Shown: piece after piece, positions 38,627 through 44,497 of the stretch | Layout of the letters: every line of letters starts with the position of its first letter | Position numbering within the stretch: the stretch's first letter is position 1 | DNA from: Escherichia phage vB_EcoM_NBG2 | Sequence record: NC_054925.1 | Strand: one strand, 5' to 3' | Length of the DNA stretch: 64,000 nt | Translations under genes and position numbers: made by a program | The notes under the pieces: model-generated | Database searches by the model: none | Seen by the model: only the letters and a program-made list of their open reading frames with translations | What the model was told of the DNA's origin: nothing

Positions 38627-39631
38627 TTAACTTACCAATTCAATCCAAGCCGGACGAAGTACATCTTGTACCATTTTAACTAATTCCTTTTTAATCAAAG
38701 AAGGATTATCCGCTTGAGTTAGAGTAATACCTTCACGAGAAGTTTCTTCCAAAATATCTTGAACAGTTAGTCCCATCACCTTTCCAAAATCTTTTGGACC
38801 AATTTCGCCAATTTTAGAAATAACGTTATTTACTCGGTTTAGTGTAACGTAACAAGCTAAAATCCCCACCAATTTGTTATCAGCTTCTGACAGTTCAACT
38901 TTAGCTTTAATAGGCTTATCAGACTTTTTCTTTTCACTAAATTTAGAGTTCTTGCATTTGATAGCTACGCGATTGCCATTAGGCATCCAAGAAGGATAAC
39001 AAGGTTTCAATACATATCCTTCAGCGGTAAATACTTCGCCTTTTACTTCAGCATTCCAAACGCATTTATTTGCATCAACTAATCCAGCATGGTCTACCGT
39101 AAAATTATAATCCTGGACGACAGAATCTAAATCATTTGGCAATTTAATAAGTTCTTCAAATTTACCGCGACCTAAAAGTGGAGCCATTTTAAATTTAAAT
39201 GTATTACAAAATGATTCCATCATATAATCATCGACATAAGTCACATCACCACTTTCTGTAGTGACAATAATGTCAAATACATAAAAATCTTTATCGCCAT
39301 AATCGACATTCTTCTGAATGCCAGGTCCAGCGAATTCGCCAAAAACTTGATAAGATACAACCGCTGAAGTTTCCATAATATCTTGTACTGCTTTAATGGA
39401 ATCAGAGTAATTCTTCAAAATAATTTCATACCCAAAGAAATCTTCAGCAGGAAGAATAGGACCAGTGCGTTTAGCGCAAGTTACTTTATCACGCTCAATA
39501 ATCAATGAGAAATTTGTGCCGTGAATCTTTTCACGAGCTACCCACTTCCCACCAGTCAATCCCAAGCTATAAAGTTTTTCAATAAATTTAGAATTGTAAT
39601 GATTTTCAAGACTGCTATACTTTTTAAACAT
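38627..39631 (-). CDS. rnlB: RNA ligase 2, 334 aa
   Basis: Nucleotidyltransferase motif I lysine in EKIHGTN; size and position after gene 24 as in T4. Confidence 0.85.
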
Positions 39632-39640
39632 AATTAATCC

Positions 39641-39919
39641 TCAAAATGTAATTTCTAACCAATCACCATCACGCTGATCACTATTGACTTTAAAGCTGAA
39701 TCCTTCTTTTCTCAGCCAATCACCAATTTCTTCAGTAATCAATTTATCACGAGCAGTACAATAATAACTAAAATGTGTTTTACCTTGTTCAGCTGCTTTA
39801 TTAGCAAGTTCCGAAAAATCTTTAATAAAACACTCTAGCTTAAACTGTTTACTTTTGAATGCTTTTTCGCGTAATTGATTAGCAAAAGATTCATTTTCAT
39901 AAAGATCATACTGTTCCAT
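39641..39919 (-). CDS. hypothetical protein, 92 aa
   Basis: Complete ORF in the rnlB-hoc interval. Confidence 0.5.
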   Translation of the reverse strand: MEQYDLYENESFANQLREKAFKSKQFKLECFIKDFSELANKAAEQGKTHFSYYCTARDKLITEEIGDWLRKEGFSFKVNSDQRDGDWLEITF

Positions 39920-40121
39920 TTTTCACCTTTTTATTGATATGTCTTTTTCTATAGACAACTTTTTCTCGAGTTTCAAATTTATTCTTAGCAGTCATAGCTC
40001 GAGCCCATAATACAGCCACCTCTTTTGCCTGTAAGTTCAATTCACGAGCAATTTCAATGAATGACTTTCCAGACTCATGGAGAGTAAACACCACAACCTC
40101 AGTTCTCATAATCAATCTCAT
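39906..40121 (-). CDS. hypothetical protein, 71 aa, basic
   Basis: Complete ORF overlapping the downstream gene start. Confidence 0.45.
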   Translation of the reverse strand: MRLIMRTEVVVFTLHESGKSFIEIARELNLQAKEVAVLWARAMTAKNKFETREKVVYRKRHINKKVKNGTV

Positions 40122-40190
40122 GTTATCGAGTTGGTGCCATTATATACATCATTTTCTGATTGTGTTTTGCGTGCTTTCAAAATGAAGAAA

Positions 40191-40204
40191 GGGGCCGAAG
40201 CCCC
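40191..40204 (-). terminator. stem-loop GGGGC-UUCG-GCCCC on minus transcript after hoc, followed by U-rich stretch
   Basis: Seen directly 7 nt downstream of the hoc stop. Confidence 0.5.
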
Positions 40205-40210
40205 TTATGA

Positions 40211-41629
40211 TTATGGATAGGTATAGATGATACCAGTTTCTAAAGCAGTTTTATGAATGATGTATCCATTACGCGATTCTTGGACATCAACTTCTGGATA
40301 GTCTTTAATCATCTTCTGAAGAGTGTAACGATGCAGGTAGTATTTACTATCTGGGTCGTCAGTTTTCCAATCTTTACCTTCTTCGGTCATTTTTTGGATT
40401 TCATCCATAACCCACCAACCGCACCAGATATAAGCTGAAGTACGATGTGGAAGAGGATGAACATAAGGTAGTTCACCTTCTGGTTCCGGAGCAACTTTAT
40501 CAGTCACTTGAACTTGACCTGTGGCTTTAACTGTTTTACTATCATAGTCAGTTGCTGTAACGACAGCAGTAACTTCAATAGTTTGACTTCCAATAGATGA
40601 GGTATCAACAGTATATACGTTAGTTGACCCTTCCACAGGAGAAGAATCTTTCTTCCATGAGTAAGTAATTTGTGCTGCTTCAGGTGCGCCATTAACATTA
40701 GCAGTAAATGTAGCCGAAGCATCTTGCTGAACATTAATAGAAGGAGGAGTCAATGTAACCTGTGGATTCATTGTCTTCTTATTAACTGTCAATGATACTT
40801 CATTGGAAGTAACTTCCTTTTCATTATAATTTTCTGCAGTTACTTGGGCTACGCATTTAATTCTTTTTACTCCACTTGTAGTTGGAGTATAGTTAAATGT
40901 AGAGTTAGTTTCTCCACCAACTTGTGAATCATCTACATACCACTGATACGTAGCAGACGCTCCGTCAGGTTGAGAAGCTAATGCAGCAGTAAATTGAACC
41001 GGGGTTCCAATTACTCCAGCAGCAGGACTAGCAGGAGTTACTGCCAAGGTAGTTGTCTGTGTCTTTTTATTAACTGTCAATGATACTTCATTGGAAGTAA
41101 CGCTCAGTGCATCATAATCTGTCGCAGTTACTTGAGCTACACACTTAATTTTTTTAACTCCGCTTGTAGTAGGAGTATAATTGAATGTAGCAGAAGTTGC
41201 TTCGCTCACAGGAGAACCGTCAACGTACCATTGATACGTAGCAGATGCGCCCGATGGCTGTGAAGCTAAGGCAGCAGTAAATTCAACGGCTGTTCCGATT
41301 ACTCCTTCTGGAGGACTATTAGGAGTTACAGCTAAAGTAGTTGTCTGTGTTTTATTTTGAACTGTAATAGTTGTACTAATTTCAGCTGTTTCAGCTTCAG
41401 AATCAGGAATAGTATTTGTTGCAACTACCTTAATAGTCTTTTGACCAGCAGGTCCTTTTAATACATAATTAAAAGTTGCTTCAGCTCCATCTTGTGGAAC
41501 ATCATCTACAGTCCAAGCATATGTAATAGGTCCATCTCCAGTTTGACCACTGGGTGTAGCAGTAAACTGCTTAGTTTCATCAATAACCCCTGTCGGTGTT
41601 TTAGGAGTTATATCAACTGTAAAAGCCAT
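40211..41629 (-). CDS. hoc: highly immunogenic outer capsid protein Hoc, 472 aa, with one extra Ig-like domain relative to T4
   Basis: Recognised N-terminus and C-terminal capsid-binding region; two tandem 96-aa Ig-like repeats. Confidence 0.9.
   Translation of the reverse strand: MAFTVDITPKTPTGVIDETKQFTATPSGQTGDGPITYAWTVDDVPQDGAEATFNYVLKGPAGQKTIKVVATNTIPDSEAETAEISTTITVQNKTQTTTLAVTPNSPPEGVIGTAVEFTAALASQPSGASATYQWYVDGSPVSEATSATFNYTPTTSGVKKIKCVAQVTATDYDALSVTSNEVSLTVNKKTQTTTLAVTPASPAAGVIGTPVQFTAALASQPDGASATYQWYVDDSQVGGETNSTFNYTPTTSGVKRIKCVAQVTAENYNEKEVTSNEVSLTVNKKTMNPQVTLTPPSINVQQDASATFTANVNGAPEAAQITYSWKKDSSPVEGSTNVYTVDTSSIGSQTIEVTAVVTATDYDSKTVKATGQVQVTDKVAPEPEGELPYVHPLPHRTSAYIWCGWWVMDEIQKMTEEGKDWKTDDPDSKYYLHRYTLQKMIKDYPEVDVQESRNGYIIHKTALETGIIYTYP
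40777..41353 (-). repeat. tandem direct repeat, 2 x 288 bp, inside hoc, encoding the duplicated Ig-like domain
   Basis: Plus-strand string ttattaactgtcaatgatacttcattggaagtaac occurs at 40779 and 41067 (period 288 bp). Confidence 0.8.
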
Positions 41630-41638
41630 AAGTTATCC

Positions 41639-42319
41639 TTATTTTAATGTTACGAAAGAAGAATTGCGTGTTTCACGAATTAAAACCGATCCATCGCGAT
41701 TAATGTAATAAATTAAGCTAAATAAAGTTTGGTGTGCTGACGCATGCTCAAAACTTGTTGGGTGAGATTTCCAATCTGGAGTTTCAGCAATCCATTGATA
41801 AATCCACCAAGGAACAGTGCAGAATCCTGGATTTTTTCCAATCAGCTGAAGATTTGGGCTAAAGTTTTCTGGAAGAGTAAATACAGACGGCTTTTCAGAT
41901 TCAATAATCTCAGCTACAGCCTGTTCGAATTTTTCTTCAACAAAAGGAGTATCTTCAATTAAAACAGTGGTATTTTCAGGAATTTTATCCGTTTCTACTA
42001 CTTCAATTTTAATGTCAGATTTAACCGGAGAATCAATCAGAAGTGCTGCCTCTGGATTGACTTCTTCATCGTCATATTTTAATCCGTCTGCGGCATCAGC
42101 AGCATCAATTAAGTCTTTAATAGATAACCCATCAGTCTCTGGCATAGGTTCACTAGCGAGCTTCTGGAGAGCTTCTTCAATATCATTAACGATATTATCA
42201 AAAGATTTATTCTTTTTGACCTTTATACCAAACTGTTCAGCATATTCAGCTAATTTAGCTTTAGCTTCTTTATTATCATCAAGAGCCTTCAGCTCTGCAA
42301 TATAATCTTTATCTATCAT
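41639..42319 (-). CDS. inh: inhibitor of prohead protease, 226 aa
   Basis: Size and position next to hoc as in T4. Confidence 0.7.
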   Translation of the reverse strand: MIDKDYIAELKALDDNKEAKAKLAEYAEQFGIKVKKNKSFDNIVNDIEEALQKLASEPMPETDGLSIKDLIDAADAADGLKYDDEEVNPEAALLIDSPVKSDIKIEVVETDKIPENTTVLIEDTPFVEEKFEQAVAEIIESEKPSVFTLPENFSPNLQLIGKNPGFCTVPWWIYQWIAETPDWKSHPTSFEHASAHQTLFSLIYYINRDGSVLIRETRNSSFVTLK

Positions 42320-42368
42320 AATATTTCCTCAGTATAAATATAGATATATTTATTACTCGGAAAATAGT

Positions 42369-42986
42369 ATGTACCACTTTGTATATGAAACAACAAATCT
42401 AATAAATGGTAAAAAGTATATAGGAAAGCACTCTACTGATGACTTGAATGATGGTTACCTTGGTTCCGGTAAGGCAATTCAGCAGGCTATAAAGAAATAT
42501 GGTGAAAACAATTTCTCTAGAACAATACTAAAAGAGTTTAAAACTTCCGAAGAAGCGTACATGTATGAAGAAGAAATTATAACTCCTGAACTAATAAAAA
42601 GCAAAAATTATTATAATATGAAACCTGGTGGAATTGGTGGAATTGTTATGACTACAGATGTTATAGCAAAGATGAAAGAATCTTCCGCTAAAAGATTTGA
42701 AAACTCACCGGGCACGGTATTAGGTAAAACTTGTTATACTAATGGAACTAAAAATATTTTTATTAAACCTGGAGAACTTGTTCCAGAAGGATTTGTAAAA
42801 GGGATGGTTCATCCTAATAGAAAGTCCAGAAAAGGATGTAAAGTCAAACCGACTACCACAGGAACTTTTTGGGTCAATAATGGCACAATAAATAAATTAA
42901 TACAACCAGACGGTATTATTCCCGACGGATTTATTAAAGGTCGTCTCATGAAAAGAGATTCTAAAGGCAAATTTAGTAAGGCATAA
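42369..42986 (+). CDS. segD: GIY-YIG homing endonuclease, 205 aa
   Basis: N-terminal GIY-YIG module (FVY...YIGKH, conserved R, E, N); position between inh and uvsW as for T4 segD. Confidence 0.7.
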   Translation: MYHFVYETTNLINGKKYIGKHSTDDLNDGYLGSGKAIQQAIKKYGENNFSRTILKEFKTSEEAYMYEEEIITPELIKSKNYYNMKPGGIGGIVMTTDVIAKMKESSAKRFENSPGTVLGKTCYTNGTKNIFIKPGELVPEGFVKGMVHPNRKSRKGCKVKPTTTGTFWVNNGTINKLIQPDGIIPDGFIKGRLMKRDSKGKFSKA

Positions 42987-42988
42987 TT

Positions 42989-44497
42989 ATGGATATTAAA
43001 GTACATTTTCACGACTTCAGTCATGTACGCATCGATTGTGAAGAGAGCACGTTCCACGAATTAAGAGATTTCTTTTCGTTTGAGGCCGATGGATATAGAT
43101 TTAATCCTCGCTTCAGATATGGCAACTGGGATGGACGAATCCGTCTTTTAGATTATAATCGCCTTCTTCCATTCGGTTTAGTCGGGCAAATTAAAAAGTT
43201 CTGTGATAACTTTGGCTATAAAGCCTGGATTGACCCGCAAATTAACGAAAAAGAAGAATTATCAAGAAAAGATTTTGATGAATGGCTTTCTAAATTAGAA
43301 ATCTATTCAGGAAATAAAAGAATTGAACCACACTGGTATCAAAAAGATGCAGTGTTCGAAGGATTAGTTAATCGTCGTAGAATTCTTAATCTTCCAACAT
43401 CCGCTGGTAAATCGTTAATTCAAGCTTTGCTTGCGCGATATTATTTGGAAAATTATGAAGGTAAAATTCTTATCATTGTTCCAACAACTGCTCTGACAAC
43501 TCAGATGGCTGATGACTTCGTCGACTATCGTTTATTCAGTCATGCAATGATAAAGAAAATTGGCGGCGGAGCATCAAAAGATGATAAATATAAAAATGAT
43601 GCACCAGTCGTTGTTGGTACATGGCAAACTGTAGTTAAACAACCGAAAGAATGGTTCTCACAGTTTGGAATGATGATGAATGATGAATGCCATCTTGCTA
43701 CAGGAAAAAGTATTTCATCTATCATATCAGGTTTAAATAACTGCATGTTCAAATTCGGTTTGTCTGGTTCATTACGTGATGGCAAAGCCAATATCATGCA
43801 GTATGTTGGAATGTTTGGTGAAATATTTAAGCCAGTAACGACTTCTAAATTAATGGAAGATGGACAAGTAACTGAGCTAAAAATTAATAGTATTTTTCTT
43901 CGCTATCCCGATGAGTTCACTACTAAATTAAAGGGAAAAACTTATCAAGAAGAAATAAAAATTATTACTGGGCTTAGTAAAAGAAATAAATGGATCGCTA
44001 AATTAGCTATTAAGCTTGCGCAAAAAGATGAAAACGCTTTTGTCATGTTTAAACATGTATCGCATGGTAAAGCTATTTTCGATTTAATTAAAAATGAATA
44101 CGATAAAGTTTATTACGTATCAGGGGAAGTTGATACCGAAACCCGCAATATAATGAAAACCTTAGCTGAAAATGGTAAAGGAATAATTATAGTAGCTAGT
44201 TATGGTGTATTTTCTACTGGTATTTCAGTTAAAAATCTGCATCACGTTGTTTTAGCGCACGGTGTTAAATCAAAAATCATTGTATTACAAACAATCGGTC
44301 GTGTATTACGTAAGCATGGTTCTAAGACAATAGCAACCGTCTGGGACCTCATAGATGATTGTGGCGTTAAGCCAAAATCTGCTAATACGAAAAAGAAATA
44401 CGTTCATTTGAACTATCTTTTAAAACACGGCATTGATCGTATTCAGCGCTACGCAGATGAAAAATTTAATTACGTAATGAAAACAGTTAATTTATAA
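42989..44497 (+). CDS. uvsW: UvsW recombination/repair helicase, 502 aa
   Basis: SF2 helicase motifs (PTSAGKS Walker A, DECH box); size and position. Confidence 0.9.
   Translation: MDIKVHFHDFSHVRIDCEESTFHELRDFFSFEADGYRFNPRFRYGNWDGRIRLLDYNRLLPFGLVGQIKKFCDNFGYKAWIDPQINEKEELSRKDFDEWLSKLEIYSGNKRIEPHWYQKDAVFEGLVNRRRILNLPTSAGKSLIQALLARYYLENYEGKILIIVPTTALTTQMADDFVDYRLFSHAMIKKIGGGASKDDKYKNDAPVVVGTWQTVVKQPKEWFSQFGMMMNDECHLATGKSISSIISGLNNCMFKFGLSGSLRDGKANIMQYVGMFGEIFKPVTTSKLMEDGQVTELKINSIFLRYPDEFTTKLKGKTYQEEIKIITGLSKRNKWIAKLAIKLAQKDENAFVMFKHVSHGKAIFDLIKNEYDKVYYVSGEVDTETRNIMKTLAENGKGIIIVASYGVFSTGISVKNLHHVVLAHGVKSKIIVLQTIGRVLRKHGSKTIATVWDLIDDCGVKPKSANTKKKYVHLNYLLKHGIDRIQRYADEKFNYVMKTVNL

Follow-up and report, generated by a model that had tools for sequence, protein, structure and literature searches.

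Why does the Hoc protein of Escherichia phage vB_EcoM_NBG2, a Tequatrovirus (T4-like), carry one Ig-like domain more than that of T4, and is this additional domain peculiar to the phage? The Hoc fibre on the T4 surface is a proposed means of retaining phages in mucus, and nanoparticle vaccines built on T4 use it as their main display scaffold. We analysed the hoc locus of NBG2 in a stretch of 64,000 nt of NC_054925.1, hereafter the window. Our main reading, to which we give a probability of about 85%, is that NBG2 has the common two-unit allele of an Ig-domain array whose copy number is polymorphic in Tequatrovirus hoc, and that the units of this array are old paralogues that are under selection and recombine.

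Layout of hoc in NBG2 and in T4

The open reading frame of hoc lies on the minus strand and gives the length of 472 aa reported in a preliminary description of this DNA (Table 1). Tandem Repeats Finder detected a repeat inside it, at 40772-41365, with a period of 288, 2.1 copies, 79% matches, and a score of 743, and a separate repeat search returned two 288-nt copies at 79% identity. The period corresponds to 96 codons, and the two units lie head to tail, in frame and with no spacer. Both open with KTQTTTLAVTP and close with SNEVSLTVNK. The preliminary description had recognised the two consecutive 96-codon units from these shared ends, and the period and the unit limits (aa 93-188 and 189-284) bear it out; the interval it gave, 40777-41353, is right except for its start, which is off by one base (the exact interval is 40778-41353). 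The units are not near-identical, as had been claimed: they share 226 of 288 nucleotides (78.5%) and 76 of 96 residues (79%). The 62 nucleotide differences are distributed 13/13/36 over codon positions 1/2/3. The last 35 nt of each unit, at the 3' end, form an exact repeat, the longest stretch over which the two are identical. An in-frame, in-register repeat of 288 nt at 79% identity is far beyond what chance produces.

Table 1. Features of hoc and of its surroundings in NBG2 (positions in the window).
Feature	Position	Strand	Remarks
rnlB	38627-39631		
24.2 and 24.3	between rnlB and hoc		
Hairpin, intrinsic-terminator-like	40189..40206	-	GC-rich; AAGGGGCTTCGGCCCCTT, then T-rich tail
hoc coding sequence, 472 aa + stop	40211..41629	-	open reading frame; E 2.2e-217 against T4 Hoc 5vf3_Z
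C-terminal capsid-binding domain, aa 381-472, + stop	40211..40489	-	aligns with T4 Hoc 285-376
Ig-like domain 3, aa 285-380	40490..40777	-	orthologous to T4 Hoc domain 3; PF13927 Ig_3 at residues 289-355
Repeat unit 2, aa 189-284	40778..41065	-	Ig-like/PKD, 'b' type, with S279-L280-T281
35-nt exact repeat, 3' end of unit 2	40779..40813	-	twin at 41067..41101
Repeat unit 1, aa 93-188	41066..41353	-	Ig-like/PKD, 'a' type, with S183-L184-T185
35-nt exact repeat, 3' end of unit 1	41067..41101	-	twin at 40779..40813
Ig-like domain 1, aa 1-92	41354..41629	-	aligns with T4 Hoc 1-92; predicted beta-sandwich, pLDDT 85-94
hoc start codon, ATG	41629	-	open reading frame
Ribosome-binding site of hoc, AAGGA	41636-41640		overlaps the inh stop codon
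inh	41639-42319		
segE	42369-42986		divergently transcribed
uvsW	42989-44497		divergently transcribed

A phmmer search aligned NBG2 Hoc with T4 Hoc (PDB 5vf3 chain Z, 376 aa) at E 2.2e-217 in two collinear blocks, one pairing NBG2 1-103 with T4 1-103 and the other NBG2 189-472 with T4 93-376. Since T4 Hoc aligns end to end save for one unit, NBG2 Hoc is T4 Hoc plus exactly one 96-aa unit. The preliminary description had given the T4 length correctly, as about 376 aa, and the domain counts of the two proteins do differ, T4 having one unit fewer. Domain 1, domain 3, and the capsid-binding domain of T4 Hoc (NP_049793) are collinear with those of NBG2 and ~90% identical to them, whereas domain 2 is represented by one unit in T4 and by two in NBG2. 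Unit 2 is the NBG2 copy closest to the single domain 2 of T4 (91.0% in nucleotides). The T4 unit is similar to unit 2 of NBG2 over its first ~220 nt and to unit 1 in its 3' tail.

The place of the gene is also the same in the two phages. In T4, hoc has inh on one side and 24.3/24.2/rnlB on the other, past inh come segE and uvsW, and the open reading frames of NBG2 agree with the T4 annotation in the order rnlB-24.2-24.3-hoc-inh, followed by the divergent (segE)-uvsW. The inh stop codon is separated from the hoc start by a gap of 9 nt, with the AAGGA site in front of hoc. At the other end of the gene, the terminator-like hairpin lies 5 nt past the stop codon, at a site where the record of phage vB_EcoM_G2540-3 (MK327944) annotates a terminator. 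A search for the T4 late promoter TATAAATA ahead of hoc and of inh, on the strand that encodes hoc, gave no exact match; the sole nearby match, at 42333-42340 on the plus strand, is ahead of segE. Sigma-70-like promoter matches are not more frequent than in shuffled sequence. Over 12 kb of the NBG2 window, the closest phage records reach at most ~97% identity, and the hoc of G2540-3 is 98.2% identical in nucleotides to that of NBG2.

Profile and structure searches agree on the nature of the repeated domain. The Pfam profile PKD (PF00801) matched NBG2 Hoc with 43.1 bits, against a cut-off of 23.5, its best stretch being residues 197-267, and the profiles Ig_3, Ig_2, and I-set likewise scored above their cut-offs. 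From an alignment of 31 Hoc proteins with two units, AlphaFold2 predicted four beta-sandwich domains, which together span residues 1-378 (pLDDT about 85-95), with a matching seven-strand pattern in units 1 and 2, and a C-terminal domain of low confidence (pLDDT below 50). The best matches of Foldseek in the PDB were strings of four Ig domains (Sidekick, Dscam1, and ICAM-5 D1-D4), and the Hoc of RB49 (3shs) was matched at E 5.5e-10. Taken with the T4 alignment, these results support the proposal, made in the preliminary description, of an extra Ig-like domain that originated by tandem duplication. The C-terminal 96 residues of NBG2 Hoc are nearly identical to those of T4 Hoc (281-376). Eleven T4 residues that Fokine et al. 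(PMC10385173) named as capsid-contacting or conserved—Y293, H295, R300, W309, W310, D313, and E355-G359—are all present in NBG2 at an offset of +96. By alignment and structural model, NBG2 Hoc consists of four predicted Ig-like domains and an intact capsid-binding domain.

The residue differences between the two units are found mainly at unit positions 46-55 and 78-84, and 16 of the 20 fall in predicted loops (Fisher p = 0.011). Given this concentration in predicted loops, units 1 and 2 probably present different surfaces.

Unit number and recombination among related alleles

A search of the phage collection with the hoc of NBG2 matched 677 records. We sampled 60 of these records at even steps and counted their units from the match span; match coverage is unusable for the purpose, as it joins two halves of the query onto one unit of the subject. 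The span was about 1131 bp in 28 of the 60 records (one unit), 1416-1425 bp in 22 (two units), and 1707 bp in 2 (three units, an assignment verified with a three-unit query), and hoc was partial or divergent in the remaining 8. The two-unit hoc is thus a common allele, present in about 40% of the sequenced relatives. Among the matches listed for the three-unit query, at least 14 records have a hoc of 1707 bp—UGKSEcP1, UGKSEcP2, KMB26, EC101, YUEEL01 (two records), ECML-123-2, TOPO13, OMNI12, ESh16, ESh26, ESh34, ESh36, and T4_ev151—and none has four units. The best 120 protein clusters, in a ranking that favours longer proteins, include 81 with one unit, 31 with two, and 8 with three; some of the two-unit clusters hold 58-167 member sequences. 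The corresponding proteins have 376 aa with one unit (T4), 472 aa with two (NBG2), and 568 aa with three (568-570 aa seen).

The two-unit alleles in GenBank, such as those of vB_EcoM_G2540-3 (MK327944), PP01, AR1, and ime09, have a hoc of 1419 or 1425 bp with the layout found in NBG2, and only point differences, in domains 1 and 3, separate them from it. Two-unit records are labelled Hoc, 'PKD domain protein', or 'capsid and scaffold protein', and the repeat goes unmentioned. The three-unit alleles (UGKSEcP1, UGKSEcP2, YUEEL01, and T4_ev151) share with NBG2 the flanking domains and the type of 96-aa unit, but they have one further unit, which makes five Ig-like domains, and their units are 75-81% identical to each other in nucleotides.

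The preliminary description had cast the repeat as a substrate for both expansion and contraction, and the first of these processes fares differently from the second. Contraction is seen in a contig from SRR22802616: its one-unit hoc is that of Shigella phage ESh33, which has two units, less 288 bp, with 1 mismatch in 1131 nt. We modelled it as the 5' part of ESh33 unit 1 joined to the 3' part of unit 2; the crossover can be placed anywhere within the 14-nt GCTGCCTTAGCTTC (unit nt 79-92), which is identical in the two ESh33 units. The 1.5-kb flanks of ESh33 are 98.7% and 99.3% identical to the contig. We class the event as a loss because the ESh33 units are so diverged (76% alike). A second case is T4_ev240, whose single unit is similar to unit 1 of NBG2 up to unit nt 219 and to unit 2 from nt 231 (62 diagnostic sites), and whose domain 3 and C-terminal segment are 98.4% identical to those of NBG2. 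Finally, unit number is uncoupled from the flanks in a group of proteins that are identical in domain 1 as well as in domain 3 and the C-terminal segment: P0006 has three units, P0036 and P0037 have two, and P0107 has one. The first units of the two-unit alleles are fusions: of units 1 and 2 of P0006 in P0037, and of its units 1 and 3 in P0036.

Recent expansion has left no such trace. The signature of a recent duplication, near-identical units in one array, was not found, the highest identity within an array being 82 of 96 aa. The middle unit of three-unit alleles was also tried as a reciprocal crossover hybrid (5' part of unit 3 and 3' part of unit 1, or the reverse); this was rejected, with 49-67 mismatches. 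Since no multi-unit allele has near-identical units, recent de novo expansion is undocumented.

Units also move between alleles. Units 1 and 2 of ESh33 are each 1 nt in 288 away from units 1 and 2 of the three-unit UGKSEcP1, which indicates the transfer of a cassette; the hoc domains on either side of the units differ between ESh33 and UGKSEcP1 by 13% and 7%. Mosaicism is extensive: 167 units make up 131 distinct sequences, with many patterns of 'a'/'b' diagnostic residues. With UPGMA trees built from the flanks, 25-27 changes of unit number are required, against 33.5 with shuffled labels, and unit number barely follows the phylogeny of the flanking domains. In summary, the only processes for which these alignments give direct evidence are contraction and cassette exchange.

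We therefore describe the locus as an array of 288-bp units of the 'domain 2' type (Ig-like/PKD), which follow one another head to tail and have domain 1 on one side and domain 3 on the other. The units are old paralogues under purifying selection, with conserved boundaries and variable surface loops. On this reading, homologous and unequal recombination, between units as well as between alleles of co-infecting phages, deletes units, moves cassettes, and makes mosaics.

A related question is which state came first. A multi-unit array may be ancestral in Tequatrovirus, in which case it would be misleading to speak of an extra domain, one-unit alleles such as that of T4 would be deletion derivatives, and the NBG2 allele would itself be contracted. 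We regard this scenario as a serious candidate with somewhat less than an even chance of being right. Every directly documented event is a loss, be it the derivation of SRR22802616 from an ESh33-type allele, that of T4_ev240 from an NBG2-type allele, or the unit 1 fusions of P0037 and P0036. ESh33 has the first two units of UGKSEcP1 and lacks the third, each of the three types of unit is old (75-90% nucleotide identity), and no allele has freshly duplicated units. However, the T4 unit, with a 5' part similar to unit 2 and a 3' tail similar to unit 1, is the opposite of what a simple deletion between units 1 and 2 would produce. Furthermore, distant Hoc proteins have from 1 to more than 10 Ig domains, which leaves the state at the root unconstrained (PMC10385173), and mosaicism blurs any tree (25-27 changes of unit number on the UPGMA trees, against 33.5 with shuffled labels).

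Age of the units and selection on them

By the method of Nei and Gojobori, units 1 and 2 differ by a dS of 0.75 and a dN of 0.14, for a dN/dS of 0.19, and both units are under purifying selection. The orthologous segments of hoc (domain 1; domain 3 plus C-terminal segment) have dS values of 0.06-0.35 between NBG2 and five related phages, and the dS between units is 2-12 times as high. Both units of G2540-3 are 100% identical to those of NBG2. The split of the units predates the divergence of present-day alleles, because of this excess of dS, because unit 2 is closer to the T4 unit (91.0%) than to unit 1 (78.5%), and because the pair is found unchanged in G2540-3.

These data bear on whether unit number matters to the phage at all. 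Copy-number variation could be a neutral by-product of the very active recombination of T4, acting on a repetitive and non-essential gene, with no effect on adherence. Hoc is indeed non-essential (PMC10580926), all three size classes coexist in phages from similar hosts or sources, and unit number is nearly uncorrelated with the phylogeny of the flanks, all of which would be expected of a neutral trait. Nevertheless, we think this explanation rather unlikely: both units are under purifying selection (dN/dS 0.19), their differences concentrate in loops (p = 0.011), the units within arrays are always diverged, and changes of single Hoc domains or residues alter mucin binding in related phages (PMC11853027).

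The preliminary description implied a recent duplication special to this phage, that is, a tandem duplication private to the NBG2 lineage with the three-Ig form of T4 as the ancestral state. The adjacency of the units, their shared frame, their length of exactly 288 bp, and their identical ends are what such an event would leave behind. Yet it is highly improbable for units that are 78.5% identical, whose dS of 0.75 is 2-12 times that of orthologous segments, and of which the second is closer to the T4 unit than to its neighbour. The units of G2540-3 are moreover those of NBG2, a hoc of 1419 bp is found in hundreds of records, and ~40% of related phage genomes have two units. The divergence between units and the orthologous two-unit alleles of other phages thus refute a recent private duplication. 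Tandem repeats are a classic cause of assembly errors, but a mis-joined or duplicated segment is the least probable explanation of all and is refuted in practice, since 62 of 288 positions distinguish the copies and let reads be placed unambiguously, the reading frame is intact, and the same layout occurs in independently sequenced phages and in metagenomes (31 clusters, and ~22 of the 60 sampled records with a 1419-bp hoc).

Fibre reach, adherence, and known Hoc arrays

The T4 capsid has 155 Hoc fibres, each of 180 Å, at the centres of gp23 hexamers, and the fibre is linear in the model (PMC10385173). NBG2 Hoc, to judge from its C-terminal domain, probably still binds the centre of these hexamers. 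An Ig domain adds roughly 4 nm, and the NBG2 fibre is probably one such domain longer than that of T4, i.e., roughly 4 nm on top of 18 nm. It would show two non-identical domain-2 surfaces, including two copies of a putative mucin-binding S-L-T motif, which NBG2 Hoc has at 183-185 and a second time at 279-281. Fu et al. (PMC11853027) reported that PNJ-9 Hoc requires S183, L184, and T185, which lie in its domain 2, for binding to MUC2. NBG2 has the same letters as PNJ-9 at the residues quoted in that paper as N92/T97, A122/G127, A165/Y172, and N180/T185, a correspondence drawn from the quoted letters and numbers. According to a passage of the same paper, the change D246N in T4 Hoc alters mucin binding (PMC11853027); the equivalent residue in NBG2 is D342, in domain 3. 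A second copy of domain 2 could alter the reach of the fibre in mucus adherence, raise its valency, or widen its ligand range.

A bolder proposal is that the domain-2 array is an actively switching locus for the length and valency of an adhesin, with mucosal niches favouring different unit numbers or loop combinations. Unequal and inter-allelic recombination would then continually yield Hoc fibres with one, two, or three units and mosaic ones, and the exchange might be boosted by the homing endonuclease gene segE, ~740 bp upstream of hoc. We hold this proposal to be doubtful and offer it as speculation. If true, a switching hoc would be the phage equivalent of bacterial adhesins with variable repeats.

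Our main reading, a common two-unit allele of a polymorphic array, has some practical consequences. About four in ten sequenced T4-like phages have a Hoc with four Ig domains, and a few have one with five, and it is worth knowing that unit number changes through clean recombination events of 288 bp. For phage therapy, this means that phages that are otherwise alike may adhere differently. For annotation, it matters that hoc often goes under the labels 'PKD domain protein' and 'capsid and scaffold protein'. For engineering, the array suggests a natural route to a longer display arm, but internal repeats are unstable.

The extra domain of NBG2 is ordinary, since it belongs to an old and common allele of an array of one to three copies. 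Variation in the number of Ig domains of Hoc is already published, and the two-unit allele is already in GenBank. The population-level picture of unit number is thus a modest addition and does not define a new kind of system. We found no explicit description of a polymorphism of one, two, and three units within the genus, or of its junctions, in full-text searches of the literature, although absence there is no proof. The closest analogy outside Hoc is with the tandem BACON repeats of crAss-like phages, which are likewise tandem domains with an Ig-like fold and of carbohydrate-binding type in a structural or surface protein of a phage (PMC6949934). The same paper describes tandem arrays of the BACON type as evolutionary hotspots; these repeats belong to another domain family, another protein, and another group of phages than the array of NBG2.

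Within the Hoc family, homologues with one, two, three, and ten Ig domains have been described, the last in Serratia phage Muldoon (PMC10385173), and PNJ-9 Hoc is without domain 3 (PMC11853027). Also varied are the lengths of C-terminally anchored relatives of Hoc, which, among representatives at 50% identity, are of about 185, 270, 360, 450-468, and 545-564 aa, and of up to ~1195 aa. These distant proteins (PNJ-9, Muldoon, and those with one or two Ig domains) resemble NBG2 Hoc in combining a C-terminal capsid anchor with a variable string of Ig domains. They differ from it in that their domain count changes between distant lineages, whereas in Tequatrovirus it changes among near-identical alleles, in which the junctions can be identified.

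Exchange of unit cassettes within hoc

The 288-bp units of hoc, each encoding one Ig-like domain, were compared between ESh33, a Shigella phage with a two-unit hoc, and UGKSEcP1, in which hoc carries three units. Over the two-unit block (positions 1777-2352 in both loci) there is 1 mismatch per 288-nt unit, whereas domain 1 differs by 13% and domain 3 plus the C-terminus by 7%. The near-identity of the block between diverged flanking domains shows that domain cassettes are swapped inside the gene.

Hoc sequences in the databases

Many Hoc sequences, among them the proteins P0020, P0025, P0026 and others, are placed in bacterial assemblies; 'PKD domain-containing protein [Escherichia coli]' is one such title, 'endonuclease [Shigella sonnei]' another. 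T4-like phage contigs thus enter databases under the label of bacterial genomes, and the product name is wrong in at least one of these entries. A full two-unit Tequatrovirus hoc (91.8% identity) was also found in MG010123.1, a 32-kb record titled 'Staphylococcus phage SAJK-IND'; mislabelling or contamination of this record seems likely. In MZ234042.1 and PP418986.1 the match to hoc is one nucleotide short (1418 nt, not 1419) and its annotation is split into two CDS, suggesting a frameshift in hoc that reflects either a pseudogene or a sequencing error.

Late promoters and gene 24.3

The core of the T4 late promoter, TATAAATA, occurs 22 times in the whole window for 9.6 expected, a count reached by 0 of 100 shuffles. 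Neither hoc nor inh has one immediately upstream on its own (hoc) strand, and the occurrence nearest to these genes is at 42333-42340 on the + strand, ahead of segE. The small gene 24.3 varies in start or length among relatives: it is annotated as 56 aa (171 nt) in T4, against an ORF of 71 aa in the window, and has 61-67 aa in other relatives.

Features neighbouring hoc in the window
Feature	Coordinates	Strand	Remarks
segE	42369-42986	+	GIY-YIG homing endonuclease gene, between inh and uvsW
24.3 ORF	39906-40121	-	71 aa

The segE polymorphism beside hoc

In the four loci compared (T4_ev240, UGKSEcP1, ESh33 and the SRR22802616 contig), segE is not present at the inh-uvsW position. It is a presence/absence polymorphism, located ~740 bp upstream of hoc, and might promote recombination there. 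T4 has segE in the same place as the window, and the two SegE proteins are identical at 204 of 205 aa, in contrast with the adjoining hoc domains, which show only ~89-91% nucleotide identity to those of T4.
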